From an uncultured bacterium (lineage in GTDB: Bacteria; Krumholzibacteriota; Krumholzibacteriia; JACNKJ01): DNA of 64,000 nucleotides. Positions within the stretch are counted from its first letter, which is position 1. Each line of letters opens with the position of its first letter. The position numbers and the translations under genes are program-made. Under the pieces are notes generated by a model. That model worked only from the letters and a program-made list of their open reading frames with translations. It did not search any database and was not told the DNA's origin. This document shows positions 38,957 to 59,383 of the stretch, in pieces. The stretch covers positions 1,565,881-1,629,880 of the forward strand of contig CAVOFT010000001.1 in NCBI GenBank assembly GCA_963695095.1. The letters are read 5' to 3'.

Positions 38957-38966
38957 GGAGGATGCG

Positions 38967-41834: not shown

Positions 41835-43027
41835 TGCCCGCGGAAGCCTGTGTCAGCAAGCGCCCCGGAGGGCTGGGCGGCTTCGAGCGCTGGCTCACGC
41901 TCTGGGTGCTGCTGTCGATCGGGGCGGGCATCCTGCTCGGCAAGCTGGCGCCGGGCCTGGCGCGCTGGCTGGACGGCCTCGCGCTCCGCGTCGACGGCGC
42001 GCCGGTGATCAGCCTGCCCATCGCCCTCTGCCTCTTCTTCATGATGTACCCGATCATGGTCAAGATCGACTTCGCCGAGCTGCTGCGCGCCGGCCGCGGC
42101 GCGAAGCCGGTGGCGCTCACCCTCGTCGTCAACTGGGCGATCAAGCCCTTCACGATGCTCGCCATCGCGAGCTTCTTCCTCGGCGGCGTCTTCTTGCGCT
42201 TCATCGGTCCGGAGGCCGTGGACCTGGTCAAGCTGCCCCTCGGACTCGACCTGCCGGTGGGGGCGAGCTACGGCGCAGGCACCGTGGTGCTCGCCGATGG
42301 CGTCAAGCTGCTGGCCGTGCCGCTCTGGCGCAGCTACCTGGCCGGCTGCATCCTGCTGGGCGTGGCGCCCTGTACGGCGATGGTGCTGGTCTGGGGCTAC
42401 CTCGCCCGCGGCAACGACGGCCACACCCTGGTGATGGTGGCGATCAACTCGCTCGCGATGCTCCTTCTCTACGGACCGCTGGGCGGCCTGCTGCTCGGCG
42501 TGGGCCGCCTGCCCGTGCCCTGGCAGGCCCTGCTGCTCTCGATCGCCGTCTATGTCGCCCTGCCCCTGGTCGCGGGCTACCTCACGCGGCGCTGGCTGGT
42601 GGCCGCCCGCGGCGAGGCCTGGTTCGCCGAGCACTTCCTGCATCGGCTGACTCCGGTCACCATCGTCGCGCTGCTGACCACGCTCGTCCTGCTCTTCTCC
42701 TTCAAGGGCGAGACGATCCTCGCCGCCCCGCTCACGATTCTCTGGATCGCGGTGCCGCTCTTCCTGCAGACCCTCCTCATCTTCGGACTCACCTATCTCC
42801 TGGCCCACCGCCTGCGCCTGGACTACCGCGATGCGGCTCCCAGCGCGCTGATCGGCGCCTCCAATCACTTCGAGGTCGCCATCGCCACGGCCACGCTGCT
42901 CTTCGGCCTCGGCTCCGGCGCCGCGCTGGCCACGGTGGTGGGCGTTCTCATCGAGGTGCCGGTGATGCTGCTCCTCGTGCGGCTTTGCCTGCGCAGTCGT
43001 GGCCGCTTCGCCGCCTTCGCGCGTTGA
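41834..43027 (+). CDS. acr3: ACR3-family arsenite efflux transporter
   Basis: ACR3 signature …[14 protein letters not shown]… and ~10 TM helices. Confidence 0.9.
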
Positions 43028-43095
43028 CAGCAGCCCCCGGCGCGAGGCACCCTGGCCCGGCCGGCGCTCGGGCCGGCCTTCCCGGAGGGTATCGG

Positions 43096-44484
43096 ATGCC
43101 GCGACGCCTGCCTGCGCGCCTGACGCGCCGTCTCGCCCTGCTCTTCGCCCTGCTCGCGGCCGGCGCCGCCCACGCCGGGGCTGCGCCGCCGCGGCATGTC
43201 ATCCTGTGCATCGGCGACGGCATGGGCTTCAACCACGTCGCCCTGGCCAGCCTCTGGGCCGCGGGCCGGCCGGACGCGGCGCCCTTCGCCGACTGGCCGG
43301 TGCGTCTCGCCTTGAGCACCGAGCCCGCCGGCGCGCCGCCCTACTCGCCCGCCGGCTTCTGGAGCCAGTCCGGCCAGCGACGGCGCGGCATCACCGATTC
43401 CGCGGCGGCGGCCACGGCCCTCGCCACGGGGGTCAAGACGGCGAACGGAGTGCTGGGGCTCACCCCCGACGGCCGTCCCCTGCACAATCTCACCGAGTGG
43501 CTGGGTGAGCGCGGTCTCGCGACGGGGTTGGTCACGAGCGTGCCCTTCGTCCATGCCACGCCGGCCGGCTTCGTCGTGCACGTCGAGGACCGCGACGACT
43601 ACCGCGCCATCGCCCGGCAGCTCCTGCTGGAGAGCCGCCTGCGCGTGCTGATGGGCTGCGGCGATCCTGCCTACGCCGCCGACGGCCGGCCGCTCGAGCA
43701 GCCCCGGGGCTTCGGCAAGGTCGGCGGCCGCGAGCTGTGGGCGGGGCTGCTCGCCGGGGCGACGACCTTCGACCTGGACGGCGACGGCGCCATCGACGCG
43801 GAGCTGATGGATCTGGACGGCGACGGCCGGCGCGATCCCTGGCAGCTCGTCACGGAGCGCGCCGCGGTGCAGGCCCTCGCCGCCGGCCCGACGCCGCTGC
43901 GCCTGCTCGTCGTGCCGCGCGGCGGACTCACGCTGCAGGCCGAGCGCCCCGGCCCCCGCCATCGCGCGCCCTTCGCGGTGCCCTTCGATGAATCGCTGCC
44001 CACGCTCGCCGAGATGAGCCTGGCCGCGCTCAACGTGCTCGACACGGATCCGGACGGCTTCTTCCTCATGATCGAGGGCGGCGCCATCGACTGGGCGGCC
44101 CACGACAACGATGCGGGCCGCCTGGTCGAGGAGCAGCTTGCCTTCCATGCCGCCGTCGCTGCGGTGATGGACTGGGTCGCGCGGGAGAGCAGCTGGGAGG
44201 AGACCTTGCTCATCGTCACCGCCGACCACGAGACGGGCGGCCTCAGCGCGCCGGGCTGGGGGCGCCGACGCTGGCAGCCGCTGCGCTCGCGCGGCATCCA
44301 TCGCCTGGCGCGGCATCAGTGGGGCAGCAGCGATCACAGCGGCGCCCTCGTGCCGCTCTATGCGATCGGTTGCGGCAGCGAGACGCTGGCCGCGCTGGCC
44401 GAGGGCAGCGATCCGCGCCGCGGCCCCTACCTCGACAACACGGCGATCGCCCCGGCCATCCGGGCGCTCTGGCGGCATCGCTGA
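43096..44484 (+). CDS. alkaline phosphatase
   Basis: Signal peptide; active-site block ITDSAAAATALATGVKT; GGAGGG RBS before ATG 43096. Confidence 0.85.
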   Translation: MPRRLPARLTRRLALLFALLAAGAAHAGAAPPRHVILCIGDGMGFNHVALASLWAAGRPDAAPFADWPVRLALSTEPAGAPPYSPAGFWSQSGQRRRGITDSAAAATALATGVKTANGVLGLTPDGRPLHNLTEWLGERGLATGLVTSVPFVHATPAGFVVHVEDRDDYRAIARQLLLESRLRVLMGCGDPAYAADGRPLEQPRGFGKVGGRELWAGLLAGATTFDLDGDGAIDAELMDLDGDGRRDPWQLVTERAAVQALAAGPTPLRLLVVPRGGLTLQAERPGPRHRAPFAVPFDESLPTLAEMSLAALNVLDTDPDGFFLMIEGGAIDWAAHDNDAGRLVEEQLAFHAAVAAVMDWVARESSWEETLLIVTADHETGGLSAPGWGRRRWQPLRSRGIHRLARHQWGSSDHSGALVPLYAIGCGSETLAALAEGSDPRRGPYLDNTAIAPAIRALWRHR

Positions 44485-45862: not shown

Positions 45863-46207
45863 CTAGAGCGAGCTGGGCATGCTGTCGGCGACGGACTCCT
45901 CCTCGCCCAGTTCCTTCTCGAGCACGGTCAGCAGCACCTGGGCGCCGTTGCGCGACTTGTTGGGGTCCAGGTAGTCGCGGATGGCCGCCTCCAGGGCATT
46001 GATGCGGGAGTTGAGATCATCGATGATGCTCTCCTGCAGGGAGAGGGCGCCCTGCAGGGAGGCGCACTCGCTGCGGAGCCGGCCGATGAGGCGCTCCTGC
46101 TGGTCGAGCCCGGTGAGCAGGGCGTCGATTTCTTCGCGGTGCGCGGCCAGGCTGAGCCGGCTCGCGGCGAGAAGCTGCTGCTTGGCCACGTCGAGCCGGT
46201 GGTTCAT
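45863..46207 (-). CDS. hypothetical coiled-coil protein
   Basis: ORF track; heptad-like Leu/Gln-rich sequence. Confidence 0.4.
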   Translation of the reverse strand: MNHRLDVAKQQLLAASRLSLAAHREEIDALLTGLDQQERLIGRLRSECASLQGALSLQESIIDDLNSRINALEAAIRDYLDPNKSRNGAQVLLTVLEKELGEEESVADSMPSSL

Positions 46208-46584
46208 CTGGCGCTCCTGGCGGTTTCATCGCTCAGGCGGCCTGCACGGCCTTGCAGTCCGCATCCGCTGTCTCGGGCGATTTTCATGATGCCGTGCCCG
46301 ACAGCCCTCCCCGAACTGCCCCGTCACTTCCCATGCCATCCCCGGCGAGCTTGCGAGGGCGCGCGCCTCCTGCGCGCAACGCGGACCTTGCAAGGCCCGC
46401 GCCCCCGCCGGAGAATGCCGCGACCCTCGTATTGGATCTTTCGCCATCCGAAAACCCTTTGACGCTCTCTTCGCCGTGATCGACACTCGCGAACAGCGCC
46501 TGCCCGGCGCCCCCCGGTCGCCCCGGCCTTCCCCTGCGGGCCGCACGGCTCATCATCGCGGCAGCGGCGACCCTGCGCTATCCG

Positions 46585-47598
46585 ATGCGGTGGGGCGTCG
46601 TTCTTGCTAATCTGGGTTCCTGGTCCGGGAATTCTCGGGTCCTTGCCGCCACCGCCGGCCCGACTCGGTGGCTGGCCAACACGAAGGGGTTTCCCACGAG
46701 CGCTTCCGCCGGTCATGGCGCCGAACGCCTTTCCGAGCGCCGCTTCCGCCGGAGCATGCGCCTCCTCGGCGCGGCTTCGACCGCCGCGCTGCTCTGGCTC
46801 TGCTGGCGCGGCGCCGGGTTCTACCTGACCGCGGATGCCGAGCGTCCCCTGCACGCGGACTACGAGCGCTGGCGGCCGGCTGGAGACATCGGCCACGGCC
46901 TGGGCATCCTCGGCTCCCTGATGATGGTGATCCTGCTCGGCTACAGCCTGCGCAAGCGCTGGCGCCCCCTGCGCGCGGCGGGGCCCATCTCGCGCTGGCT
47001 CAGCGTGCACATCTACCTGGGCATTTTCGGCCCACTGCTCGTCGTGCTGCACAGCGCCTTCAAGGTGAACGGCCTCGTCTCGCTGAGCTTCTGGTCGATG
47101 GTGGCGGTGGCGGCCAGCGGCGTCCTGGGCCGCTATCTCTATCTCCAGATTCCGCGCAACCTGCAGGGCGACGCGCTGGACCTGGCGGCCCTCGAGACCG
47201 AGGACGCCGCGCTGAACGCGGCGCTGGCCGCCGACTTCGGCCTCGATGCGCAGACCCTGGCTGGACTGCAGCGTCTGGGGGGAACCGGGGAAGCTCGATC
47301 CCTGGGCGCGGCCTTGCTCGCCTCGCTCGCCAGCGACCTCACGCTGTCCCTGCGCCTGCGTCGCTTCCTCGCCCAGCGGACGGCCGGCTTTCGCCTACCC
47401 GCGGGCGAGCGGCGCCGGCTCCTGGCCCTGGCTCGCCGGCGGGCGCTCCTCGCGCGACGGCGCTTGCTGCTCGAGCGCCTGGAGCGGATCTTCCACTACT
47501 GGCATGTGATCCACAAACCTTTCGCCGTCGTGATGCTCGCCATCATGGTCGTGCACGTGGGAGTGACCGTCCTGTTGGGCTACCGATGGATCTTCTAA
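46585..47598 (+). CDS. membrane protein with His-bearing TM helices (cytochrome b-like)
   Basis: ~5 predicted helices with His pairs (…IGHGLGILG…, …SVHIYLGIFGPLLVVLHSAF…, …HYWHVIHKPFAVVMLAIMVVHVG…); stop overlaps the next start (TAATG); start codon uncertain. Confidence 0.5.
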   Translation: MRWGVVLANLGSWSGNSRVLAATAGPTRWLANTKGFPTSASAGHGAERLSERRFRRSMRLLGAASTAALLWLCWRGAGFYLTADAERPLHADYERWRPAGDIGHGLGILGSLMMVILLGYSLRKRWRPLRAAGPISRWLSVHIYLGIFGPLLVVLHSAFKVNGLVSLSFWSMVAVAASGVLGRYLYLQIPRNLQGDALDLAALETEDAALNAALAADFGLDAQTLAGLQRLGGTGEARSLGAALLASLASDLTLSLRLRRFLAQRTAGFRLPAGERRRLLALARRRALLARRRLLLERLERIFHYWHVIHKPFAVVMLAIMVVHVGVTVLLGYRWIF

Positions 47599-49277
47599 TG
47601 CGGGGCGCGCTGCGCTGCGCTCTGCTCTGCCTCGCCTGCGCCTGGGCGACGCCGGCCCCTGCCCAGCTCTCGCCGGGGCCGCTGTCCACGCCCCACGCCG
47701 AGCTCGAGGGCCTCAAGCGCTGCACGAGCTGCCACGAGATCGGCGAGGGCGTGCGCGCGGACAAGTGCTTCGCCTGTCATCGCCAGCTCGGCGCGCGGAT
47801 CGCCGCGGGCCAGGGCCTGCACGCCGGTGCCGACTACGCGAACTGCATCGGCTGTCACTCCGAGCACCACGGGCGCGACTATCCCCTCATCCGCTGGCCC
47901 GGCGGCGAAGCCAACTTCGACCACGGGGCCGCCGGCTACACGCTCGTCGGCGCCCATGCCCGCCTCGGCTGCCGCGACTGCCACCGCGAGGCGTTCGTCG
48001 CCGGCGCTGCCGCGCTGAGGGCCGAAGGCAGCGATCCCGCGCGCAGCTTTCTCGGACTCGGCAAGACCTGCCTGGACTGCCACCAGGATCCGCATCGCGG
48101 CGAGCTGGGCGCGCGCTGCCTCGCCTGCCACGGCGAGGAGGCCTGGCGGCCCGCCGCCGGCTTCGACCACGCGAGCACGCGCTATCCCCTGCGCGGCAAG
48201 CACGCAGATGTGGCTTGCGAGAAGTGCCATCCGCGCAGCGGCGGCGCCGCGACGGGGGACCTGCACATCGCCTTCAAGGGCGTCGCCTTTGCCGATTGCC
48301 GGGACTGCCACCAGGATCCGCACGCCGGCCGCTTCAAGGAAGCCTGCGCGAGCTGTCACAGCGAGAGCGGCTGGCGGCAGGGCGCGAGCGCGCGCTTCGA
48401 TCACGAGCGCACGCGCTATCCTCTGCGCGGCCGGCACGCCGCGCTGGACTGCGGGGCCTGCCACAAGCCGGGCGTCCCGCACGCGCCCCTGGCCCACGCG
48501 CGCTGTCTGGACTGTCACGCGGACAAGCATGAAGGGCAGTTCAAGCTGGCCGGCGCGCTCAGGGATTGCAGCGATTGTCACGACGCCGGCATCAAGGGCT
48601 TCGCGCCTGCGAAGTTCGGTCCGGCGCAGCACGCCGCGAGTCGCTACCCCCTGGCCGGAGCGCACCTGGCCGTGGCCTGCCGCGACTGCCATGCACCCAC
48701 GGCCGCCTTCGCCGCCGGGCGCTTCCGCTACGCCGACACCAGCTGCAGCAGCTGCCACGCGGATCCGCACGGCAAGGCGCTCGCGCTCGCGGGTGAGGCC
48801 CGCCGCTGCGAGGCCTGCCACCAGGTGGCGAGCTGGCGCGCTGTGGCCTGGGATCATGCGCAGACGGCCTTCCCCCTGGCCGAGCGCCACGCCGAGATCG
48901 CCTGCCGCGCTTGTCACGAGCCGATCGCCGGCCAGCCCGCCGGGACGCTGCGTTTCGCCGGCCTGGGCAAGGACTGCGCGACCTGCCATGCCGACGTCCA
49001 CCGGGGGCAGTTCGTGCTGGCCGGCGAGCAGGCGACGCGCTGCGAGCGCTGCCACGACAGCCGCGATTGGTTCGCCGCTCGCTTCGAGCACAACCGCGAT
49101 GCGCGCTTTGCCCTGGACGGCGCCCACGCGCCCCTGGCTTGCACCGCCTGCCACCAACCCCTCGCAGCTGCAGCGGGCCAGCCGGTCACGCTGCGCTACA
49201 AGCCGCTGCCGACGGACTGCAAGTCCTGTCATCCGGACCTCGTCCCGGCAGCGTCCACGCAAGGAGATCGGCCATGA
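47598..49277 (+). CDS. multiheme c-type cytochrome (~20 CxxCH)
   Basis: Signal peptide MRGALRCALLCLACAWATPAPA; ~20 CxxCH in repeated FDHxxTxYPLxGxHxxxxCxxCH modules. Confidence 0.85.
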   Translation: MRGALRCALLCLACAWATPAPAQLSPGPLSTPHAELEGLKRCTSCHEIGEGVRADKCFACHRQLGARIAAGQGLHAGADYANCIGCHSEHHGRDYPLIRWPGGEANFDHGAAGYTLVGAHARLGCRDCHREAFVAGAAALRAEGSDPARSFLGLGKTCLDCHQDPHRGELGARCLACHGEEAWRPAAGFDHASTRYPLRGKHADVACEKCHPRSGGAATGDLHIAFKGVAFADCRDCHQDPHAGRFKEACASCHSESGWRQGASARFDHERTRYPLRGRHAALDCGACHKPGVPHAPLAHARCLDCHADKHEGQFKLAGALRDCSDCHDAGIKGFAPAKFGPAQHAASRYPLAGAHLAVACRDCHAPTAAFAAGRFRYADTSCSSCHADPHGKALALAGEARRCEACHQVASWRAVAWDHAQTAFPLAERHAEIACRACHEPIAGQPAGTLRFAGLGKDCATCHADVHRGQFVLAGEQATRCERCHDSRDWFAARFEHNRDARFALDGAHAPLACTACHQPLAAAAGQPVTLRYKPLPTDCKSCHPDLVPAASTQGDRP

Positions 49278-50560
49278 TCGCCGGGACCGCTCGACTTCGC
49301 CGCGCTCTGCCCTGGCTGCTGCTGCCGCTGCCCTTCCTGATCCTGCTCGGGGCCGGCGATGATCAAGCTGGACAGAGCCCGCAGAGCCCGCAGAGCCCGC
49401 ACGGACCGCTTGCCATCGACTGCGCGCACTGCCATGCCACGGATAGCTGGCGCTTCGCCGCCGGCCGGGGCTTCGCGCACGACAGCACGGGCTATGTCCT
49501 CGAGGGCGCGCACGCCCAGGCCGATTGCGTCGGCTGTCACGGCGACCTGCGCTTCGGCCGCGTCGCCTCGGCCTGCGCGGATTGCCACCTCGACGTGCAC
49601 GCCGGCGAGCTGGGCTTCGACTGCGCCGGCTGTCACTCTCCGCACGATTGGCAGCCGACGGGCGGGACCCTGGCCCTGCACGCCGCGCGCGGCTTTCCCC
49701 TGCTCGGTGTCCACGCGCGGGTGGATTGCGAATCCTGCCACGTCGGCGCCAAGGGCGAGGAGTTCGCGGGCACGCCGAGCGACTGCTTCGCCTGCCACGC
49801 CGACGACTACGCGGCGACCTCGGCGCCCGACCACGGGGCGGCGGGCATGTCCACGGACTGCCTGAGCTGCCACTCCTCGGTGGCGCCTGGCTGGGGCGAC
49901 AGCAACTTCGATCACGATGCCTACTTCCCGCTGAGCGGCGCCCACGCTCGCCTGGACTGCCTGGCCTGTCACCAGGGCGGCTTCGGCGGCCAGCCGACCA
50001 GCTGCATCGGCTGCCACCAGGCCGACTACGACGGCGCGGACGATCCCGATCACCGGGCCGCCAACTTCGACACGGCCTGCCTCGTCTGTCACAGCACGCA
50101 GGCCTGGTCGCCGGCCACCTTCAATCACGCGGCGACGGCCTTTCCGCTCACGGGCGCGCACACGAGCGCGAGCTGCCTGAGCTGCCATGCCTCCGGCTAC
50201 GCCGGCACGCCGACGGACTGCTACGCCTGCCACCAGGGGGACTTCGAAAGCGCCGACGATCCGGATCACGCGGCCGCCGGCTTCAACACGCAGTGCGCAG
50301 TCTGCCACTCCACGGCGAACTGGTCGCCCTCCACCTGGGACCACGATCAGCTCTTCCCGATCTACTCGGGCCGCCATCGGGGCGAGTGGAACAGCTGCGC
50401 GGACTGCCACGTGCAGTCCACGAACTACGCCGAGTTCGAGTGCATCCTCTGCCACGAGCACAGCCAGAACGAAACCGACGGCCATCACGACAACGTGGAC
50501 GACTACGTCTACGAGAGCGCGGCCTGCTTCGACTGCCACCCGCGCGGCGAGGCCGATTGA
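49274..50560 (+). CDS. multiheme c-type cytochrome (~16 CxxCH)
   Basis: Signal peptide; ~16 CxxCH in the same module type; ATGA overlap with the previous gene. Confidence 0.85.
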   Translation: MIAGTARLRRALPWLLLPLPFLILLGAGDDQAGQSPQSPQSPHGPLAIDCAHCHATDSWRFAAGRGFAHDSTGYVLEGAHAQADCVGCHGDLRFGRVASACADCHLDVHAGELGFDCAGCHSPHDWQPTGGTLALHAARGFPLLGVHARVDCESCHVGAKGEEFAGTPSDCFACHADDYAATSAPDHGAAGMSTDCLSCHSSVAPGWGDSNFDHDAYFPLSGAHARLDCLACHQGGFGGQPTSCIGCHQADYDGADDPDHRAANFDTACLVCHSTQAWSPATFNHAATAFPLTGAHTSASCLSCHASGYAGTPTDCYACHQGDFESADDPDHAAAGFNTQCAVCHSTANWSPSTWDHDQLFPIYSGRHRGEWNSCADCHVQSTNYAEFECILCHEHSQNETDGHHDNVDDYVYESAACFDCHPRGEAD

Positions 50561-52113
50561 TGCACAGGTTCATTCCGGCCCTCGCATTCCTGCTCGCCGC
50601 GAGCGCCGCCGCGGCCTCGCCGGAGGCGCGCATCCGCTACCTCTCGGCCGAGCAGGTCTATCTGGATGCGGGCCTCGCCGCCGGCTTCGCCGAGGGGGAT
50701 ACCCTGGGCGTGCTGCGCGAAGGCAGGACCGTGGCCAGCTTGCTCGTCCTCCATGCCGCCGAGCACTCGGCAGCCTGCCGCATCCTGGCCAGCCGGGTGG
50801 CGCTCGCCGCCGGCGACCGCGTGCGCGGAGTGCAGCGCAGCGCGCCGCCGGCCGTCGCCGTGCCTCCGGCAGCGCCGCGGCGGAGCCGGGACCCCGCGGC
50901 GCCCGCGCCCGGTAGCCCGGCGTCCCGCGCCTCCAGCGGCCGCTTCAGCGGCAGCCTGCGCTTCGCCTGGGACGCCTACCGGGACGACGCCGCCGCCGCG
51001 CGCGACTACGACCGGCTCAGCGCGACACTCGGCCTGCGCGGTGAGCAGCTGGCCGGCCGCGACCTGCGTCTCGATCTGCGCCTGCGCCAGCGCACGGTGA
51101 AGCGCACAGGCGCAGCCGACGAGCAGCGCCTGCGCCTCTACGCCGCGGCGATCGAGTACGGCGCAAGCAGGGGCCGCTGGCACCTGGCCGCGGGCCGCCT
51201 CGGTGGGGGCCGGCAATCGGGAGCCGGCGCTCTGGACGGCCTCCTCGTCGGCCGCCGTCTGGGCGATGCCGAACTCGGCGGCTACTTCGGCGCCATGCCC
51301 GACTGGAATGAGGAGGGCCTGCGCGATCGGGGCACGCGCGGGGGTCTCTACCTGCGCCAGCGCCTGGCATCCGCGCAGTGGTCCCTCGAAGCGGTGGGCG
51401 AGCGCCTCGCCGGCGAGAGCAGCCGCGACTACCTCCTGGCGGGCAGTTCCTGGCAGCGCGGCGCCCTCAGCCTGCGCGAACGCCTCGAACTGGATTGGAA
51501 CCGCGGTTGGCGGGGGGACCGGGCGGCGGACGCCCTTCAGGTCAGCGCGCTGAATGTCGGCGCCGACTGGCGGCCGCACGCGGACTTCGGCCTCGGCCTG
51601 CGTGTGGACAGCCGCGCCACGCCCCTGGACGGCGAGCAGCGCACGCTCCCCGATAGCCTCTTCCAGGAAGCGCGCTCGCAGGGCAGCAGCCTGAGCCTCT
51701 CCTGGCGTCCCCTGCCCGGCGCGCGCCTGGGCGCGCGCGCCGGTTGGCGCAGCCGCGCCGGGTCTGCGCGCGGGACGGCCTCATGGGGTCTGGACCTGGG
51801 CATCGACGCGCCGGCCCTGCCTCACCTGCACCTGGATCTCCGCCTGAGCGGCTTCGACGGCGAAGCGGCCCGAGGCCTCTCCCCGAGCGCGGACCTGCGC
51901 CGGCGCTTCCGCGCGGGCCACGAGCTGGGACTGGCCGCGGGCGCCTACCTCTACACGCCGCGCGACCTCGAGGCTCGCCACAATCGCTGGCTGCGCGCCG
52001 AGGGTCGCCTGGCGCTAGCCGGCCGCGCCTGGCTGGGGCTCTCCATCGAAACGGATGGCGGCGACGATCTCAGCGGCCGGCGCTTCGGCGCCGAACTGGG
52101 ACGGCGCTTCTAG
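50560..52113 (+). CDS. secreted Arg/Gly-rich protein, possible outer-membrane beta-barrel
   Basis: Signal peptide MHRFIPALAFLLAASAAAA; alternating hydrophobic pattern; C-terminal …GRRF; start overlaps the previous stop. Confidence 0.5.
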   Translation: MHRFIPALAFLLAASAAAASPEARIRYLSAEQVYLDAGLAAGFAEGDTLGVLREGRTVASLLVLHAAEHSAACRILASRVALAAGDRVRGVQRSAPPAVAVPPAAPRRSRDPAAPAPGSPASRASSGRFSGSLRFAWDAYRDDAAAARDYDRLSATLGLRGEQLAGRDLRLDLRLRQRTVKRTGAADEQRLRLYAAAIEYGASRGRWHLAAGRLGGGRQSGAGALDGLLVGRRLGDAELGGYFGAMPDWNEEGLRDRGTRGGLYLRQRLASAQWSLEAVGERLAGESSRDYLLAGSSWQRGALSLRERLELDWNRGWRGDRAADALQVSALNVGADWRPHADFGLGLRVDSRATPLDGEQRTLPDSLFQEARSQGSSLSLSWRPLPGARLGARAGWRSRAGSARGTASWGLDLGIDAPALPHLHLDLRLSGFDGEAARGLSPSADLRRRFRAGHELGLAAGAYLYTPRDLEARHNRWLRAEGRLALAGRAWLGLSIETDGGDDLSGRRFGAELGRRF

Positions 52114-52114
52114 C

Positions 52115-53405
52115 ATGGAGACCCTTGCCATCTGGGGCGGCGCCCTCTTGCTCGTGCTGGCCGTCGTGCTGCCCTACGCGCGCAGCTTCCGCCGCCGCGA
52201 GCGCGAGACGGCCGCCCGGCGCGCGGAAGCGGTAGCGCTGGGGGCCGATCGCGCCATCGCCCAGCACCCCCAGGTCGACGCGCTGCGCTGCATCGGCTGC
52301 GGCGCCTGTGTCGCCGCCTGTCCCGAGGGGGAGGTGCTGGGTCTGGTGGCGGGCAAGGCCGTCATCATCAACGGGCTCAAGTGCGTGGGCCACGGCCTCT
52401 GCGCGGTGGCCTGTCCGGTCGAGGGTATCAGCGTCGGGCTGGGCGACCTCGGCGCGCGCGACGACATCCCCCAGCACGATGCGCATCTGGAGACGAACCT
52501 GCCGGGGGTCTACGTGGCCGGCGAGTTGAGCGGCTATGCGCTGATCCGCAACGCGGTGGCCCAGGGCGTCCAGGCCGTCGAGCACATGGCGAGCCAGCCG
52601 CGGGCGGCGGCGGATCGCCTCGACCTGCTCATCGTGGGCGCCGGGCCGGCGGGCCTGGCCGCGGCCCTCGCCGCCAAGGAGGCGGGCCTGCGCAGCCTGG
52701 TGCTGGAGCGCGAGGCCGCGGGCGGGACAATCTTGCAGTACCCGCGCAAGAAGCTCGTGCTGACCCAGCCGGTGGCGATCCCCCTCTACGGCGTTCTCGA
52801 CCGCGAGGAGTACACCAAGGAGGAGCTGCTGGAGATCTGGCGCGGCATCGTCGAGCGCTTCGCGCTTGCCCATCGAGATCGGCGCCAGCGTGGACGGCAT
52901 GCAGGCGCTCGCCGGGGGCGGTTATCGCCTCACGGCCGCCGGGCGGCACTGGGATGCTCAGCGCGTGCTGCTCGCCCTGGGCCGCCGCGGCACGCCGCGC
53001 AAGCTGGGCGTGCCCGGCGAGGACAGCGAGAAGGTCTTCTACAAGCTGCTCGATGCCGCCTCCTTCGCCGGCGAGCGCGTGCTCGTCGTGGGCGGTGGCG
53101 ACAGCGCCGTCGAGGCGGCAATGGGCCTGGCCCTGCAGGAGCACACGGCCGTCACCCTCGCCTACCGCAAGGAGAAGCTGTTCCGCATCAAGCGGCGCAA
53201 CGAAGAGCGCTTCGCGCCGCTCCTGCGGGAGGGCCGCCTGCGCGCGGCCTTCAATGCGGATGTGCTCGCCATCGAGCCTGAGGCCGTACGCTTGCGCGTC
53301 GCGGGCAGGGAGGAGACGCTCGCCAACGATCGCGTCTTCGTTCTCGCGGGCGGCGAGCCGCCCTTCCCCCTGCTCAAGGCGATGGGCTTGCGCTTCGGCC
53401 GCTAG
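52115..53405 (+). CDS. membrane-anchored ferredoxin-domain/FAD-dependent pyridine nucleotide-disulfide-type oxidoreductase (one +1 frame change)
   Basis: N-terminal TM helix, CIGCGACVAACP and CVGHGLCAVACP cluster motifs, LLIVGAGPAG and VVGGGDSAVE dinucleotide motifs; C-terminal part in ORF 52866..53405; shift near 52860. Confidence 0.7.
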
Positions 53406-53431: not shown

Positions 53432-54268
53432 TCAGTCCCGCGCGCGCGGCGTGCCGGGCGCGCGCACCCAGTCCACCCAGGAGCCATCGTAGAGCGCGAC
53501 GTCGTCCTGGCCCAGGCGCGCGAAGGCGAAGGCCAGCACGCAGGCCGTGACGCCCGAGCCGCAGCTCACGGCCAGGGAGCGCTGCAGATTGAGACCCGCG
53601 GCGGCGACGCGCGCGCGCAGGCCCTCGTCGGCGAGCAAGCGGCCGTCTGCGTCGAGCAGCTCCGCATAAGGGAGGTTCCGGCTGTCCGGGATGCGCCCCG
53701 GCTCGCCCCAGGGCTCGGGGCCGAGGCCGGCGAAGCGCTCGCGGCTGCGGGCGTCCACGAGCAGGCGCTCGCGGCGCTCGAGGTTGGCGAGCACCGCCTC
53801 GCGATCCCAGACGGCGAAGCGCCCTGCCCGCGCTGCGCGCACTTGCGGTGCGGGGCGCTCTTCGCCGGTCGCCAGGGGCAGGCCCGCCCTCTGCCAGGCG
53901 GGCAGGCCGCCGTCCAGGACGGCGACGCGGGCCTGGCCGAAGTGGCGGAAGGTCCACCAGGCGCGGCAGGCGGCCGAAGCCACCCCCGTCTGATCATAGA
54001 CGACGACGCGATCGGCCTCGGCGATGCCGAGGGCGCCGGCCGCGGCGGCGAAGGTGGCCGCATCGGGCAGCATGTGGGGCAGCGCAGCCGGCGGGCCGGC
54101 CACGCTGTCGATGTCGAAGAAGACGGCGCCGGGCAGGCGCGCCTCGCGGTAGCGGGCGCGGGCATCCAGGCCGGAGGCCGGAGCGTGCCAGCTGGCGTCG
54201 ACGAGGCGCAGACCCGGCGCGCCGAGCAGAGCGGCCAGATCGGTGGGAGCGATGAGTTCGGCGTCCAT
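53432..54268 (-). CDS. sseA: 3-mercaptopyruvate/thiosulfate sulfurtransferase (tandem rhodanese)
   Basis: Two rhodanese domains with active-site CGSGVTAC. Confidence 0.85.
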   Translation of the reverse strand: MDAELIAPTDLAALLGAPGLRLVDASWHAPASGLDARARYREARLPGAVFFDIDSVAGPPAALPHMLPDAATFAAAAGALGIAEADRVVVYDQTGVASAACRAWWTFRHFGQARVAVLDGGLPAWQRAGLPLATGEERPAPQVRAARAGRFAVWDREAVLANLERRERLLVDARSRERFAGLGPEPWGEPGRIPDSRNLPYAELLDADGRLLADEGLRARVAAAGLNLQRSLAVSCGSGVTACVLAFAFARLGQDDVALYDGSWVDWVRAPGTPRARD

Positions 54269-54489
54269 GGCAGCGAGAGATGGCAGAGCGACAGTTCGCG
54301 GTCAAGCCGAGAGGCAGCTGTTAAGCGTCTATTAAGAGGGGAAATTCCGCTTGCCGGATCGGAGCGCTCTGCCTAGTTTCTGCGGGACCTCGGAGCGCCG
54401 CGTCCGGCGAAGGGACCGCTGCGGCATCATTTTCCAAGGCCGGACCCCGCTGGGGTCGATGACCGTGCAATCCTGAGGGAGGATCAGCG

Positions 54490-55599
54490 ATGAAGAGAGC
54501 CACGTTCCTCGCGGCGGCGCTGCTGCTGCTCGCGCTGGCCGGGGCGGCCCGGGCGGAGGGTTCCTTGGTGGGTCTGCTGCAGACCTGGTGGTCTTACACC
54601 GCCTACACGGATCCGGATAGCTCCAAGTTCGATGCCAGCCAGACCGGCTTCGGCGTGCGCCGCGCTCGCATCGGCTACGACTACAAGGGCGGCGACATGT
54701 CGGGCGGCCTGCTGGGGGACGTCAGCGGCCTCAACGTCGTCATCCTGGATGCCTATGCCGACTGGAAGTTCACCGAGAAGGCGAGCCTGCGGGCGGGGCG
54801 CTTCATCGGCGTACAGAGCCAGGCGGCGGGGCTGACTTCTTCGGCCAAGATCGACCTCGTGGAGCGCAGCATCGTGGGCCGCCGCGTGGGCAGCGGCACC
54901 GTGGGCGGCGATTATCGAACCTTCGGGGCCCAGCTCACGCTGGAGCCCAGCGACATGTTCAAGGCGCAGCTGCTCGCGCACAACGGCAGCGGCAGCTGGG
55001 GCGCCGACTTCACGCCCTCCACCAACAGCCACGGCGATCCCACGGCCTTGGATGACGAGGACGAGCCAGCGCCCACGATGGCCGACACCGGCGCGCTGCC
55101 CCAGCTCGACTTCGGCATCAGCGCGACGCCGACGCCGGAACTCAGCGTGGGCTTCACCTACGGCCTGCCCAACGAGTTCCGCAGCCCGACCGGCTCGCTG
55201 ACGGCCTTCGTCTACTACGCGGCCCCCGCCTACTACTTCAAGTTCGACTACGCCACCTTGATGTGGAATCCGGTCTGGGACGACGACGCTGCCGACTACA
55301 GCAGCCTCGGCTACTCGCTGACCGCCGGCTATAGCCTGAACAAGAAGGCCGAGCTGGTGGGACGCTACGAGATCTGGGACACCAACACGGACGTCGACTA
55401 CGCGAGCGAGGATGCCGTGGGGGATCCGGAGCTGGTCAAGAACCTGGGCCTGGGCGTGAACTACTACGTCAACCCGGACGCCAAGTACGATCAGGTCTTC
55501 AAGGTCGCCTTCACGCTGCGCCTGGACGACATGCCCGACGGCGTGGACATCGCCGATCCCTACCTCTTCCAGCTCATGTGGCAGATCTACGTGCACTAG
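54490..55599 (+). CDS. putative outer-membrane porin
   Basis: Signal peptide MKRATFLAAALLLLALAGAARA; beta-strand-like alternation with Tyr/Gly-rich segments. Confidence 0.55.
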   Translation: MKRATFLAAALLLLALAGAARAEGSLVGLLQTWWSYTAYTDPDSSKFDASQTGFGVRRARIGYDYKGGDMSGGLLGDVSGLNVVILDAYADWKFTEKASLRAGRFIGVQSQAAGLTSSAKIDLVERSIVGRRVGSGTVGGDYRTFGAQLTLEPSDMFKAQLLAHNGSGSWGADFTPSTNSHGDPTALDDEDEPAPTMADTGALPQLDFGISATPTPELSVGFTYGLPNEFRSPTGSLTAFVYYAAPAYYFKFDYATLMWNPVWDDDAADYSSLGYSLTAGYSLNKKAELVGRYEIWDTNTDVDYASEDAVGDPELVKNLGLGVNYYVNPDAKYDQVFKVAFTLRLDDMPDGVDIADPYLFQLMWQIYVH

Positions 55600-55651
55600 C
55601 CGCTGCCGCGCTGGGCCCGGGGCGAAGGGGGAAGGCAGCCTTCCCCCTTCG

Positions 55652-56266
55652 TCATTGGCGGCCTGCCGCCGGCGCCGCGAAGTGCAGGGGCGCGCTGGCG
55701 TCCAGCTCGCGCCCCGCCGCGTCAACCGGCACCACGCGCCAGAAGCCCCTGGCTGGCGGCAGCGAGTCCATGCTCGCGGGCCAGAGGAGCAGGGTGTCGG
55801 CTGCCAGCGCGCTGAAGCGCAGGCGCGCCTCGGCATCGTAGAGTTCGAAGCGATAGAGCCGGGCTCGAGCGTCGGCCGTCCAGCGGAAACGCCGGGCCGG
55901 GGCGTCCAGGCTCCCGGCGGGCTCGAGTCCTTTCACCTGACCGGCTTCGCCGCGCAGGCGGGGGACCGCGGGCGAGCCGGCGCGCTCACGCCAGCCGGGA
56001 CCCAGCCAGAGCAGGGCGATGGCCGCTGCCAGCGGCAGGGCCGCGATCAGGCTCCGGCGGCGCCAGTGCAGCCCACGGCGGCGCCGCCCCTCGTCCGCGA
56101 TGGCCCCCTGGAGATTCACCTGGGCGTAGAGCGCCTCGCTGGCCTGGGCGTCCCCGAGCAGCTCCGCTTCGAGGGCCGCCCGGTCGGCGGCCGCCAGGCG
56201 GCCGGCCAGGTAGTCCGCCAGTCGCGTCTCGCGATCGCCGGCATCTCCGCCCACATCGAGCTTCAT
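55652..56266 (-). CDS. putative membrane anti-sigma factor
   Basis: In-frame ATG (MKLDVGGD) overlapping the sigma gene stop; one TM segment (LIAALPLAAAIALLWLG); position directly after the ECF sigma gene. Confidence 0.45.
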   Translation of the reverse strand: MKLDVGGDAGDRETRLADYLAGRLAAADRAALEAELLGDAQASEALYAQVNLQGAIADEGRRRRGLHWRRRSLIAALPLAAAIALLWLGPGWRERAGSPAVPRLRGEAGQVKGLEPAGSLDAPARRFRWTADARARLYRFELYDAEARLRFSALAADTLLLWPASMDSLPPARGFWRVVPVDAAGRELDASAPLHFAAPAAGRQ

Positions 56267-56805
56267 GGCAACACTCCTCGCTGGATCAGGATCTCCCGCA
56301 GGCGGGCGCGGCAGCGGTACAGCCGGCGGTAGAGCAGCTCGGCAGCCAGGCCCTCCGAGGCTGCCAGTGTCGCCGGCGAGGCGCCGGCCAGCAGGCGGCG
56401 CAGGTAGCGGCTGCAATCGGGCGCGCTCGGCGCCAGCGCGTCCAGCGCAGCCGCCAGGGCATGGGAGCGCTCCGCGCGTTCGAGCGCTTCGAGCGGACTG
56501 GGCTCCGCGCTGCCGGCGACCTGCGCAGCGCTCAGCGACTCGTGGCGACGGTGCCGCTGGCGCTGGTAGTGGTTGCCGATCGTGTTGCGGAGCACCTGAA
56601 AGCACCAGGCCAGGGGGGGCAGGCCCTCGGGCATTCGCGCTTCGCCGGCAGCTCCCGCCACGATGCCCCGCTCGTAGACCACGCGCAACGCCTCCTGTAC
56701 CGTATCCTCGACCGCTTCGGCGGCCACGCGGCGGCTGGCGATCTCCATGAAGCGCGCCCGCAGGGCCGTCAACCAGCGCTCACGCTCGGCAGACGGCCCG
56801 CTCAT
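56263..56805 (-). CDS. ECF-type RNA polymerase sigma factor
   Basis: Sigma-70 region 2/4-like sequence; start overlaps the CHAT gene stop. Confidence 0.7.
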   Translation of the reverse strand: MSGPSAERERWLTALRARFMEIASRRVAAEAVEDTVQEALRVVYERGIVAGAAGEARMPEGLPPLAWCFQVLRNTIGNHYQRQRHRRHESLSAAQVAGSAEPSPLEALERAERSHALAAALDALAPSAPDCSRYLRRLLAGASPATLAASEGLAAELLYRRLYRCRARLREILIQRGVLP

Positions 56806-59246
56806 TTGCCGAGGCCCCGCGATCTCCCCCGCCGTCGGCGCCGCGCGAGGAAAGCGCCCGGCAGGAGCAGGGCCGCCGAGGCGGCCAGGATCCAGGCCGC
56901 ACGCGGCGAGCGCTGGGCGGGGGCGGCGCCGGCGAGCGCCGCCACGGGATGCGCGCCAAGGCCGGTGAGGATGAAGGCTGCCCGATCCCGCAGGGGATAG
57001 CCCTCCCTCGCCATGGCGAGGCGAGCGAGGCCCAGCGCATGGTCGCGCTCCTCGCCGCGGCGCAGGGCCGCGTAGAAATGCACCATGAAGCGGCGCGCCG
57101 CCCGATCCTCGACATCCCAGAGGCTGGAGACCACGCTGCGGGCACCGGCGAGGAGGAAGGAGCGCGGCAGGCCGAAGCTGCCCTCGCCGGGCAGGACGAG
57201 ACCCAGGCTGCTGCGGCAGGCACTGAGGGTGACCAGATCGGCACTGAGGCGCAGGCTCTCCACCTCGGCGGCTCGGAGGAATTCGCTGCCGCCGTCGATG
57301 CCCGCGAGCAGCAGGGCGGCGTCGGCTCCGTTGAGCGGATTGATCAGCGCGTGGGTGGCGAAGTGAAGCACGGCACAGCCGGCGGCAGCGGCGCTCAGGT
57401 CCGCCTTGCGGGCGGCACGGCCTTCCAGTCGCCGACTGCCGGCCACGGCGATCTCGCGAATCTCCGCTCGCGCTTCGGGCAGGGGAACGCCCGCCAGGCC
57501 GCGACTCGGGTCCGCCCGCTCGCCGGCGAGCGCAGCGGGGGCCGGCGGGGGATCGGCCAGGGCCAGCATGCCCGCCCCGGCAGCGGGTCGCTCGGCGACC
57601 AGGACCAGGGCGCTGGCGCTGGGCAGGTAGCTCAGGTCGAAGCGCTCGCCGAGACTGCCTCCGGAGATGGGCAGGGCCTCGAAGGGGAAGCCCGCCAGGG
57701 CATCCGGCGGGATCAGGCAGAGCCGCGTCGCATCGGGCGGCAGCAGTGGCAGCAGGGGGGCGAGGAGTTGCTCGGCCAGGCGTGCCAGGGGCGGCGCGCA
57801 GCGCGAATCGGAGTTCCCATCCGCCATCAGGCTGAGGGCGGCGCGCACATCGTCGTCGAGGCTGGGCTCCAGCGCCAGGTCGAGCATCTGGAGGCCGCGG
57901 CCATCGACGAGGAATACGAGAAGGTGGTCATCGATGTAGCTATCGTATTGAATAAGACATGCATTGGATCTATCAAGTTCTGCCTGAACAGCGCGTAGCG
58001 CTGCCGGCTGCCCGCTGCCCAGGCGCTCGCGAAAGAGCGGCGCCCGCCCGCGCTCCGAGGTGGCCCAGCCGGCGGCGAGATCGCCGGTCCGAAGCTGGCA
58101 GCGCGCGAGCGCGGAGTAGTAGGCCGCGCCTTCGCGCTGAAGGCCGGCCCGGCTGTCGGGGGCCTCCTGCCTGTAGCGCTGGCTCTCGAAGGCGGTCACG
58201 GTCTCGCCGAGTACGGCCTCGGCCTCGCCGAGCCGGCCGAGAGCGAAGAGGGCCTCGCCCTCCAGCGCCCGCACCGAATTGAGCAGGGGGCCGTGCTCGA
58301 GCGCGGCGATCTCGGGCTTCAGGTCGCGCGCAGCGGCCAGGCAATCCGCGGCGCGGCCGGCGTCCAGCAGGAGACCGAGGCGGGCCTCGCGGCAGCGCGC
58401 CGCATAGTAGCGTTCGCCGGCGGCGTCCAGGGTGGCGATGCCGGTCTCGAGCCGAGGCAGCGCTTCGTCGCCGCGCCCCAGGGCGTCGAGGAGAGCGGCG
58501 CGACGCACGATGGCGAGGCCCAGGGCGTCCGTCCGTCCGGCCACTCTGGCCAGGGCGAGCGCCGAGTCCGCCCAGGCCAGCGCCTCCACCTGCCGTCCGA
58601 GCTGGGCCATCAGCAGGGTGCGGCGCATCAGCGTCGACAGCTGACCGCCCACGTTGCCCGCCAGGCGATCCCAGCGCTCGGCCTGCAGTGTTGCGTCCAG
58701 GGCCTCGCCCACGCGGCCCAGTTCCTGGTAGCTGTTGGCGATGTTGCCCCAGGTCACGCCCAGGCCGAAGCTGTCACCCAGGGCCTCGCGCAAGGGTATC
58801 ATCTCGATCCAGCTGGCCACGGCCTCTTCGCTGCGGCCGGCGGCCGCCCGCCCCACGGCGATCGCATTGAGCAGGCTGACTTCCGTCCTGGGCTCTCCGT
58901 GCCGGCGCAGCATGGCCAGGCCCCGCTGCCAGGTCGTCTCGGCCTCCTTCAGATGTCCGAAGCGGAAGGCGTGAATGCCCGCCCATTCGTAGCCGCGGCC
59001 CGCCGGCCCCAGGAGGCCGGCGGCTTCCAGGCTGTCCGCCAGGGCGAGCAGGGCGCCGCAATGGGCGAGCCGCTCGCTCTCGCTGCTGGGTTTGCTCGGA
59101 TAGAGGGCGGCGGCCCGCGCCATCAGCCACGTGGAGTCGGCGGCCGCCGGCGCCGCCTGAGGCCGCTCGGGAACAGCCGTGCTCAGCACTGCGCCCAGGA
59201 GCAGGGGAAGCAGGGCCAAGCGTGGCTGTGGTCCTTGGCGTCGCAT
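56802..59246 (-). CDS. secreted TPR-like/CHAT-domain (caspase-like) protein with C-terminal membrane anchor
   Basis: In-frame ATG 59246 gives signal peptide MRRQGPQPRLALLPLLLGAVLS; TPR-like repeats; CHAT motifs …VLHFATHAL… and …LVTLSACRSS…; C-terminal hydrophobic stretch plus RRRRRGRSR. Confidence 0.75.
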   Translation of the reverse strand: MRRQGPQPRLALLPLLLGAVLSTAVPERPQAAPAAADSTWLMARAAALYPSKPSSESERLAHCGALLALADSLEAAGLLGPAGRGYEWAGIHAFRFGHLKEAETTWQRGLAMLRRHGEPRTEVSLLNAIAVGRAAAGRSEEAVASWIEMIPLREALGDSFGLGVTWGNIANSYQELGRVGEALDATLQAERWDRLAGNVGGQLSTLMRRTLLMAQLGRQVEALAWADSALALARVAGRTDALGLAIVRRAALLDALGRGDEALPRLETGIATLDAAGERYYAARCREARLGLLLDAGRAADCLAAARDLKPEIAALEHGPLLNSVRALEGEALFALGRLGEAEAVLGETVTAFESQRYRQEAPDSRAGLQREGAAYYSALARCQLRTGDLAAGWATSERGRAPLFRERLGSGQPAALRAVQAELDRSNACLIQYDSYIDDHLLVFLVDGRGLQMLDLALEPSLDDDVRAALSLMADGNSDSRCAPPLARLAEQLLAPLLPLLPPDATRLCLIPPDALAGFPFEALPISGGSLGERFDLSYLPSASALVLVAERPAAGAGMLALADPPPAPAALAGERADPSRGLAGVPLPEARAEIREIAVAGSRRLEGRAARKADLSAAAAGCAVLHFATHALINPLNGADAALLLAGIDGGSEFLRAAEVESLRLSADLVTLSACRSSLGLVLPGEGSFGLPRSFLLAGARSVVSSLWDVEDRAARRFMVHFYAALRRGEERDHALGLARLAMAREGYPLRDRAAFILTGLGAHPVAALAGAAPAQRSPRAAWILAASAALLLPGAFLARRRRRGRSRGLGK

Positions 59247-59383
59247 GTGGGCCGATTCCAGTATATTGCCTATCGACAATGGTTTGTAGCCATCGATCCT
59301 AGTCGATCTGTCGCCATGGCGCCAGCTATTTTGGATCGCGGTCGGTCCCTCGCCGCCAGCGCTACCTTTTTCTCGCCTCGCGC

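Follow-up and report, generated by a model that had tools for sequence, protein, structure and literature searches.

To our knowledge, all well-studied Gram-negative extracellular electron-transfer chains (Mtr, Pcc/Ext and Mto/Pio) draw electrons from the pool of quinones or deliver them to it, and the Mtr and Pcc systems are fed from quinol via CymA, ImcH or CbcL rather than from a cytoplasmic flavoprotein. The locus considered here, a five-gene unit encoding two multihaem cytochromes, a predicted outer-membrane barrel, an inner-membrane protein (IMP) and an iron-sulfur flavoprotein, lies in a 64,000-nucleotide (nt) stretch of DNA from an uncultured Krumholzibacteriota bacterium (GCA_963695095.1, contig CAVOFT010000001.1, positions 1,565,881 to 1,629,880; hereafter the window). 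Its closest described counterpart is PCC3, which comprises a porin, a cytochrome designated 'extracellular' (median 34 haems), a cytochrome designated 'periplasmic' (median 21) and an IMP of ~300 amino acids (aa), and which is known from Proteobacteria including Sideroxydans and Leptothrix (He et al. 2017, PMC5566968). Of the five transmembrane (TM) helices of the PCC3 IMP, TM4 bears SGxxG, and TM3 and TM5 each bear W-x3-H-x13-H; in PCC3 and PCC4 these motifs have been read as two b-haem sites, the IMP has been compared with the ferric-reductase domain, and a quinone-active role has been proposed for it (PMC5566968). The same study lists porin-free clusters of the type 'MHC + IMP + other redox protein', MHC being a multihaem cytochrome (Supplementary Table 6). 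PCC3 was still functionally unverified in 2023-2025 (PMC9900912; bioRxiv 10.1101/2025.02.27.639646).

The four PCC3-like genes of the window are accompanied by a fifth, flavoprotein gene that is retained with them across many phyla. The interpretation that we favour on balance is that all five genes encode one trans-envelope porin-cytochrome electron machine, fed by NAD(P)H through the flavoprotein and running outward. The conduit itself is well supported by gene content, a barrel model and haem modules of the electron-transfer type, in line with an earlier note that had proposed such a conduit from the sequence alone. We infer the NAD(P)H input, the outward direction and which of the two cytochromes is extracellular.

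Composition and conservation of the five-gene unit

In the map of open reading frames (ORFs) of the window, whose G+C content is ~72%, the unit consists of five head-to-tail genes on the + strand (g1-g5, 46756-53405), co-directional and located where the earlier note had placed them. The genes and their leader are as follows.

46208 to 46755, + strand: leader, 548 bp of non-coding DNA between a divergent minus-strand gene (45863-46207) and g1; presumed promoter region
46756 to 47598, + strand: g1, five-TM inner-membrane protein of 280 aa; putative PCC3-type IMP, carrying electrons across the membrane on two b haems
47598 to 49277, + strand: g2, secreted cytochrome c of 559 aa with 20 CxxCH; presumed periplasm-spanning wire
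49274 to 50560, + strand: g3, secreted cytochrome c of 428 aa with 16 CxxCH; presumed outer or extracellular wire
50560 to 52113, + strand: g4, outer-membrane protein of 517 aa, modelled as a 22-strand beta-barrel
52115 to 53405, + strand: g5, membrane-anchored cytoplasmic iron-sulfur flavoprotein, 429 aa once repaired; carries a +1 frameshift here

The genes had been described as joined throughout by overlapping stop and start codons. This holds for g1/g2 (TAATG, 1-nt overlap), g2/g3 (ATGA, 4-nt overlap) and g3/g4 (TGATG, 1-nt overlap), but g4 and g5 are separated by a 1-nt spacer (TAG-C-ATG). The start of g1 had been set at 46585, which belongs to an over-extended ORF; the true start is 46756, and the resulting 280-aa form is identical to a database protein (P0009). 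Downstream, the unit ends at a convergent rhodanese gene. Neither a sigma-70 consensus site nor an Rfam match was found in the leader, and promoter, terminator and Rfam scans of the locus were uninformative.

Locus-wide searches with hidden Markov models (HMMs) recovered all five families together in 52 of the 54 loci with enough context, the two exceptions being ORF-merging or rearranged cases, and the flanks of these loci are unrelated between genomes. This arrangement, whose phylogenetic distribution the earlier note had suggested checking, is far beyond chance and is kept in many phyla. The order g1-g2-g3-g4-g5 is found in most loci, g1-g5-g2-g3-g4 in Bacteroidota and some Ignavibacteriales, and other loci have g5-g1-g2-g3-g4 or a divergent g3/g4 pair beside g1-g2-g5; order thus varies among loci, and membership does not. 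Since g5 co-occurs with the other genes under several orders and often directly adjoins g1, it is best regarded as a core subunit.

The g1 family is large, with at least 1,797 word-indexed relatives, 3,960 clusters at 50% identity in a HMMER scan (E <= 1e-3), and a relative in at least 581 species when one genome per species was scanned. The best 80 of these species are all represented by metagenome-assembled genomes (MAGs) and include Ignavibacteria, Calditrichota, Zixibacteria, Krumholzibacteria, Eisenbacteria, Bacteroidales, Saprospiraceae, Cytophagaceae and Fibrobacteraceae, together with the acidobacterial groups Vicinamibacteria, Thermoanaerobaculia and Holophagales. The closest named relative is encoded in a Latescibacteria-labelled MAG (L001). 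A cultured carrier also exists, the bacteroidote Emticicia oligotrophica DSM 17448, whose 100-kb plasmid pEMTOL02 (NC_018749.1, 78197-90781; L087; locus tags EMTOL_RS21085-21110) contains ccsA-g1-g5-g2-g3-g4 followed by a gene for a GW-domain protein, with 23 CxxCH in g2, 40 in g3 and only generic RefSeq labels for the cluster genes. Its location on a plasmid with the cytochrome-c maturation gene ccsA suggests that the module is horizontally mobile together with that gene.

An adjacent g1-g5 pair occurs on a 10.4-kb contig of an Acidobacteriota MAG (L021:5415-7845), which has no multihaem cytochrome or barrel gene; it may represent a minimal inner-membrane module. A g5-like protein on a Pseudoalteromonas chromid lies among glycosyltransferases and was set aside as unrelated to the conduit. 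Three candidate Rosetta-stone fusions (P0265, P0282 and P0269), in which part of g1 is joined to c7 repeats or to the C-terminal half of Pyr_redox_3, were likewise rejected, being partial and probably products of frameshifts or assembly.

Predicted properties of the five proteins

The following features within the genes are used below.

46996 to 47052, + strand: TM3 motif W81-x3-H85-x13-H99 of g1, invariant in a 32-sequence alignment
47500 to 47556, + strand: TM5 motif W249-x3-H253-x13-H267 of g1, with an additional invariant H247 before it and H250 within it
50623 to 50826, + strand: small N-terminal beta domain of g4 (aa 22-89) in the AlphaFold2 model
52286 to 52414, + strand: 2x[4Fe-4S] ferredoxin domain of g5 (aa 58-100), predicted by motif
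52379 to 52414, + strand: second cluster motif CxGHxxCxxxCP of g5 (aa 89-100), with His for the second Cys
52472 to 52594, + strand: segment PGVYVAGEL...NA of g5 (aa ~120-160), which precedes the FAD motif GxGxxG
52860 to 52868, + strand: frameshift site in g5, with one extra G at ~52864 (TTCGCGCTTG, against TTCGC-CTTG in the relative L091)

All relatives of g1 are ~280-310 aa long. In the AlphaFold2 model of g1 (pLDDT 80.8), five TM helices are accompanied by a helical insert of ~110 aa on the cytoplasmic side. Across the 32-sequence alignment, W81, H85, H99, S121, G122, G125, H247, W249, H250, H253 and H267 are invariant, so that TM4 carries an invariant SGxxG (S121GVLG125). The protein had been called a His-rich polytopic membrane protein; it is polytopic but hardly His-rich, with eight His in all, six of them invariant. 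The positive-inside rule would put H85 and H253 close to the cytoplasm and H99 and H267 close to the periplasm, the geometry expected of two haems stacked across the membrane. Binding of haem b by g1 and its contact with g5 are both putative.

A Pfam search with g1 returned no family at threshold. The DUF4405 and cytochrome b resemblance anticipated earlier is present, but all matches are sub-threshold: those of g1 itself, to DUF4405 and cytochrome b561, cover the last helix only, and among the 32 members DUF4405 is matched in 21, Ni_hydr_CYTB (prokaryotic cytochrome b561) in seven and Ferric_reduct in one. Comparison of the model with solved structures, NOX and cytochrome b561 included, detected no relative. 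The earlier premise of a quinol-oxidising cytochrome b feeding the conduit is not supported, and the comparative evidence favours the flavoprotein as the cytoplasmic partner of g1 instead.

The two secreted cytochromes are the sole multihaem ORFs of the window, and the approximate haem counts first given for them, 20 and 16, proved exact: g2 has 20 CxxCH in 559 aa (27.9 aa per haem) and g3 has 16 in 428 aa (26.8 aa per haem). Neither contains a CxxCK, CX3CH or CX4CH site, and their 24 and 20 spare His, respectively, are enough for bis-His ligation of every haem. The module FDHxxTxYPLxGxHxxxxCxxCH, from whose repetition both proteins had been thought to be built, occurs in its strict form only twice, both times in g2, but looser copies do reappear about every 75 aa, each period holding three haems. 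Specifically, g2 is composed of about six c7-type trihaem repeats of ~77 aa each, and g3 of repeats of ~73 aa with three haems apiece. The Pfam domains of both proteins are exclusively c7/c3-type electron-transfer haem modules, and the match to a nitrite, hydroxylamine or sulfite reductase that had been named as evidence against a conduit was not found. The C-terminal half of g2 shows a partial match (residues 322-546) to the DmsE/MtrA decahaem model TIGR03508 (68.4 bits, cut-off 192.2), and g2 also scores 27.8 bits for Mtrc-MtrF_II-IV_dom, where 30 are required. Orthologues of g2 carry a type I signal peptide, and the N-termini of g2 and g3 lack a lipobox as far as reading of the sequence can tell. 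The haem count of g2 is stable, at 20 in 57 of 68 orthologues. The g3 gene is often duplicated and its orthologues carry 5-73 CxxCH; in the close relative L091 (L091:10510-12459) it encodes 25, the difference from the 16 found here being three trihaem units of ~73 aa. These differences, between close relatives and across phyla, indicate that the repeat number of g3 evolves quickly.

The product of g4 had been characterized as a secreted, Arg/Gly-rich, Phe-ended and possibly beta-barrel protein, a description that holds up: a signal peptide is present, A, R, L and G are abundant, and the last residues read ...GRRF. Its AlphaFold2 model, based on an 8-sequence alignment (pLDDT 75.6, barrel blocks mostly 80-95), forms an outer-membrane barrel of 22 antiparallel strands (aa 128-516, nt 50941-52107) rather than the soluble protein that would have spoken against a conduit. 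Beta-amphipathic periodicity runs along the barrel region of a 47-sequence alignment, and nearly all orthologues end in an outer-membrane sorting signal of the type E-x-G-[YR]-R-F. Ahead of the barrel, a disordered Pro-rich linker (aa 93-123) follows the small N-terminal beta domain, in which Y27, S29, Y34, G38, G42, G46, S70 and C73 (usually H-S-A-x-C) are near-invariant and which may serve as a cytochrome docking site. No match to g4 was found in Pfam or NCBIfam; its word-indexed relatives number eight, and a repeated search from a diverse g4 alignment returned the same eight.

In g5, the membrane anchor, the two ferredoxin motifs and the FAD and NAD(P) motifs reported earlier are all present. 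The N-terminus is a TM helix followed by RSFRRRERE, and these basic residues after the anchor imply that the remaining domains should be cytoplasmic. The first cluster motif is a canonical CxxCxxCxxxCPE, at least 95% conserved among 60 sequences. The His of the second motif is conserved to the same degree in 60 orthologues, and this second cluster may be a His-ligated [4Fe-4S] centre at the electron exit site. Further downstream lie the FAD motif GxGxxG, the NAD(P)H motif GxGxxA and GGGDSA, with the FAD and NAD(P) motifs conserved. Pyr_redox_3 is matched by the C-terminal half (E 6e-24) and by the intact Emticicia orthologue (E 6e-42), and the closest solved relatives are YpdA/Bdr, TrxR and TrxR-type ferredoxin-NADP reductase (E 1e-22 and weaker), with residues 168-427 matching PDB 7A7B at E 1.4e-22. 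At the equivalog level (TIGR04018 or TIGR01292), the two halves of g5 score 49.7 and 97.2 bits, where the cut-off is 339.9. Because no Cys occurs past residue 99, g5 is not a disulfide reductase. The region at aa ~120-160 resembles the FAD 'GD' segment that TrxR, FNR and E3 (dihydrolipoamide dehydrogenases) carry at the C-terminus, with weak E-values (0.007-0.9) and with all 24 matches falling on this one region; since the segment stands ahead of GxGxxG, a circularly permuted, TrxR/YpdA-like flavoprotein fold is suggested. Intact orthologues are 417-453 aa long. In L091 (L091:14035-15324), which is 84% identical in nucleotides across g5, an intact 429-aa protein is encoded. The extra G of the window may be a genuine inactivating mutation, or it may have arisen in assembly.

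As for the surroundings, an arsenic-resistance-type cluster lies upstream of g1 (38255-44481) and contains genes for an ArsP permease, a thioredoxin, a DsbD_TM/CcdA-like protein, a redoxin, a low-molecular-weight-phosphatase ArsC and an Acr3/SBF transporter, followed by an alkaline phosphatase. It is syntenic in L091 and is not found beside the conduit in other phyla; these genes are thus outside the conserved unit. The downstream neighbours, within 53432-59390, comprise the rhodanese gene (minus strand), a phosphate-selective-type porin gene (54490-55599; its L001 orthologue matches Porin_O_P weakly), a sigma factor and anti-sigma-like pair (55652-56805, minus strand), named by reading of the sequence, and a gene for a large TPR-CHAT protein (56802-59390, minus strand). 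All of these, from rhodanese to TPR-CHAT, are also present in L001.

A proposed electron path and its alternatives

The link between the IMP family and cytoplasmic flavoproteins extends beyond the five-gene loci. Distant g1 homologues, all with five TM helices and H-x13-H, are plasmid-encoded in Alteromonas macleodii, Methylocystis rosea and Bradyrhizobium sp. BTAi1; tblastn E-values are 4e-5 for Alteromonas and 1e-3 for Methylocystis, and the Bradyrhizobium IMP, named 'iron reductase' in RefSeq, aligns with g1 in hhalign at 98.4% probability (E 4.9e-15). Each of these genes directly follows one for a membrane-associated protein of FAD_binding_6, NAD_binding_1 and Fer2 domains (FNR-type, [2Fe-2S]), and a 7-haem c3-type cytochrome is also encoded in the Alteromonas and Bradyrhizobium loci. 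On the Bradyrhizobium plasmid pBBta01 (NC_009475.1, 63-74 kb; L092) the order is gnd-zwf-FNR-type protein-IMP-7-haem cytochrome-hypothetical-tal, the flavoprotein-IMP-cytochrome trio being flanked by the NADPH-generating pentose-phosphate genes zwf, gnd and tal. Because two unrelated NAD(P)H-flavin-iron-sulfur modules adjoin the same IMP family, a shared function of supplying or accepting cytoplasmic electrons is indicated.

In the Alteromonas locus (pAM1A3, L088), the homologue stands beside a [NiFe]-hydrogenase island and is followed by the 7-haem cytochrome and a 407-aa polytopic membrane protein. In the Methylocystis locus (L089), it comes directly after an FNR-type 2Fe-2S flavoprotein.

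Taken together, the following route can be proposed. Anchored to the cytoplasmic face by its single TM helix, g5 would take electrons from NAD(P)H at an FAD site of the TrxR/FNR-like kind and hand them on to its two [4Fe-4S] clusters, one of which carries a conserved His where a Cys ligand would normally stand. The electrons would then cross the inner membrane on two b haems of g1, ligated by the H-x13-H pairs of TM3 and TM5. The 20-haem chain of g2 would bridge the periplasm, its MtrA-like C-terminal half probably entering the barrel; g4 would provide the 22-strand outer-membrane sheath; and g3 would act as the outward wire to an extracellular acceptor, for instance humics, minerals of Fe(III) or Mn(IV), a partner cell or possibly O2. 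The overall logic would be that of a split ferric-reductase/NADPH-oxidase extended across the diderm envelope. Since the quinone pool would be bypassed, electron disposal or reductive acquisition is suggested rather than proton-pumping respiration; such a route would conserve no energy chemiosmotically; its use would be that of a sink for electrons or of a reductase acting outside the cell, as with yeast Fre or NOX enzymes. The NAD(P)H couple lies at about -320 mV, and the inside-negative membrane potential aids the exit of electrons and opposes their entry. These two potentials, and the lack of an encoded energy-coupling subunit, make the outward direction the likelier one.

Several points weigh against this interpretation. 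The g5 gene is frameshifted in this window, and the only g1 fusions found look like artefacts. For g5, both the nucleotide used and the direction of the redox reaction are presumed. The assignment of g3 as the extracellular member follows from analogy, with no lipobox on either cytochrome. A quinone site may exist in g1, He et al. having proposed quinone exchange for the IMP family, and proteobacterial PCC3 as described works without a g5-type gene.

One alternative is that the frameshift is genuine and the locus is a relic or operates without its input subunit in this genome. The extra G does split a gene that is intact in the 84%-identical relative, and g3 is shortened here as well (16 haems against 25). 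Against decay, both halves of g5 are fully conserved with high GC3 (0.92 in the second half) and no further lesions, the four other genes are intact, and the source is a 3.6-Mb single contig for which long-read assembly is suspected, in which case single-base indels are common. Decay of the system is therefore considered rather unlikely.

An unlikely alternative of a different kind keeps g2, g3 and g4 as the same conduit but makes g1 a quinol dehydrogenase or quinone reductase, with g5 being an accessory protein (redox poising, repair or regulation) or one that feeds the quinone site. This view can draw on the quinone-active, cytochrome b-like role proposed for the IMP family (He et al. 2017, PMC5566968), on the weak similarity of g1 relatives to cytochrome b561 and DUF4405, and on the description of proteobacterial PCC3 with four genes and no flavoprotein. 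It has more difficulty with the finding of g5 and g1 together in 52 of 54 loci, often immediately adjacent, and with the non-homologous NAD(P)H flavoproteins beside distant IMP homologues, which are hard to explain for an accessory factor; in addition, no quinone-site motif was identified in g1.

Multihaem wires are reversible in principle, and the conduit could run inward, with Fe(II), minerals, a cathode or a partner cell outside as the source and with g1 and g5 passing the electrons to NAD(P)+ or another cytoplasmic acceptor. According to the literature, PCC3 was first found in Fe(II) oxidizers and is discussed as a possible iron oxidase, and in iron-oxidizing Sideroxydans CL21 one PCC3 copy shows upregulation of its IMP gene. 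However, the transfer from Fe(II) or minerals to NAD(P)+ (~-320 mV) would be uphill and opposed by the inside-negative potential with no energy-coupling subunit encoded, and the hosts belong mostly to lineages described as organotrophs (Bacteroidota, Ignavibacteria, Calditrichota and Acidobacteriota) rather than to known lithoautotrophic iron oxidizers, which makes inward flow improbable here.

A periplasmic reductase of a soluble substrate (nitrite, hydroxylamine, sulfite, selenite/tellurite or arsenate) with g4 as substrate porin is disfavoured as highly improbable, since what speaks for it, the upstream ars cluster and short stretches of the g2 C-terminus that resemble the ExtN/ExtO models of the selenite/tellurite operon below threshold (25-27 bits, cut-off 200), is set against the lack of any NrfA, HAO, OTR, MccA or molybdopterin domain and of CxxCK or any other catalytic haem motif in g2 and g3, the spare His available for bis-His ligation at all haems, a g3 haem count (5-73) unlike that of an enzyme, and the absence of linkage of ars genes to the cluster in other genomes. 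Nitrite, sulfite and hydroxylamine reduction and arsenate respiration were each rejected for want of a catalytic domain and of conserved linkage, and the earlier suggestion of arsenate as an acceptor has no support, the upstream ars genes being of the resistance type.

Within the favoured interpretation of an NAD(P)H-fed, outward-running conduit, a bolder version, which we hold only tentatively, is that the unit constitutes a quinone-independent, NAD(P)H-driven 'diderm ferric reductase', in which g5 docks on an unrecognised class of di-haem protein with no solved relative. If this were true, a wire of 36 haems (up to more than 90 in some loci) and a 22-strand barrel would carry cytoplasmic electrons directly to the exterior in hundreds of FCB-group and Acidobacteriota species, aerobic heterotrophs included. 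This would amount to a major overlooked form of extracellular electron transfer, serving fermentative electron dumping, reductive metal acquisition or extracellular production of reactive oxygen species, with input modules swapped independently between lineages (TrxR-type/4Fe-4S and FNR-type/2Fe-2S). An NAD(P)H-fed conduit would also change how models of sediments, soils and bioelectrochemical systems treat the flow of electrons and the energy gained from it, add Ignavibacteria, Calditrichota, Zixibacteria, Krumholzibacteria, Bacteroidota and Acidobacteriota to the list of electroactive lineages, and change the reading of the long-uncharacterised inner-membrane proteins of PCC3 and PCC4. Being compact (five genes) and carried in Emticicia on a plasmid with a cytochrome-c maturation gene, the module is portable and attractive for engineering, and the existence of this cultured carrier makes the hypothesis directly testable.

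Comparison with described systems

The best-characterized conduits differ from this locus in several respects. Shewanella MtrCAB (PDB 6R2Q) and OmaB-OmbB-OmcB, the Pcc complex of Geobacter, have barrels of 26 strands, compared with 22 in g4, and cytochromes of 10+10 or 8+12 haems, compared with 20 and 16. The MtrA/DmsE, MtrB/PioB and MtrC-type families of the Mtr, MtoAB and PioAB systems are not matched at threshold by g2-g4, the family scores falling far below the cut-offs, and the two cytochromes show no lipobox on reading of their N-termini. The earlier remark that the ferredoxin-flavoprotein does not fit the Mtr and Pcc layouts is confirmed. The Pcc clusters described for Ignavibacterium and Melioribacter in the literature were considered and rejected as counterparts, being a different cluster with a 14-haem, 400-aa cytochrome.

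With regard to the inner-membrane step, the FRE/NOX enzymes of eukaryotes and bacteria (FRD superfamily) are similar in principle, passing electrons from cytoplasmic NAD(P)H through a flavin and two TM3/TM5 bis-His haems to an outside acceptor, and His pairs of the PF01794 type (H-x13-H on TM3, H-x12/13-H on TM5) are present and invariant in g1. Nevertheless, g1 is below the threshold of Pfam Ferric_reduct (PF01794), shows no fold similarity to solved members and lacks fused FAD_binding_8 and NAD_binding_6 domains; the putative dehydrogenase is a separate, non-homologous protein with two extra iron-sulfur clusters, and the acceptor would be a periplasmic cytochrome wire instead of O2 or Fe(III) directly. 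The dehydrogenase candidate shares with YpdA/Bdr and the TrxR-type ferredoxin-NADP+ reductases (PDB 7A7B and 3AB1) a two-Rossmann FAD/NAD(P)H fold at residues 168-427, but g5 differs from them in its TM anchor, fused dicluster ferredoxin, moved 'GD' segment, lack of a redox-active Cys and sub-equivalog score.

The clusters of Supplementary Table 6, to which the Bradyrhizobium, Alteromonas and Methylocystis plasmid loci correspond, resemble the present one in combining a homologous IMP, a c3/c7-type multihaem cytochrome and a membrane-associated NAD(P)H/FAD/iron-sulfur protein. Their flavoprotein is of the FNR type with [2Fe-2S], whereas here it is of the TrxR type with 2x[4Fe-4S], and they have small cytochromes (7-8 haems) and neither a barrel nor a second cytochrome, so that their output stays in the periplasm.

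A literature search turned up no paper describing this five-gene cluster. The match to PCC3, whose two cytochromes are repeat-built at ~26-30 aa per haem, extends to g1-g4 feature by feature at the level of description: both systems have an outer-membrane barrel (also 22 strands in the Leptothrix cholodnii porin), a conserved, repeat-built periplasmic cytochrome (~21-27 haems at ~27 aa per haem in PCC3; 20 at 27.9 in g2), a second cytochrome of variable haem number (10-85 in PCC3; 5-73 in g3) and a five-helix IMP with SGxxG and two W-x3-H-x13-H motifs (280 aa in g1). They differ in gene order, in the extra N-terminal periplasmic domain of g4 and in their hosts, which are Proteobacteria for PCC3 and members of the FCB group and Acidobacteriota here. 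Above all, PCC3 has four genes and no flavoprotein, whereas g5 is present as a fifth gene in 52 of 54 loci; what is new here is this conserved NAD(P)H-type iron-sulfur flavoprotein, a previously undescribed candidate input subunit on a PCC3-like conduit.

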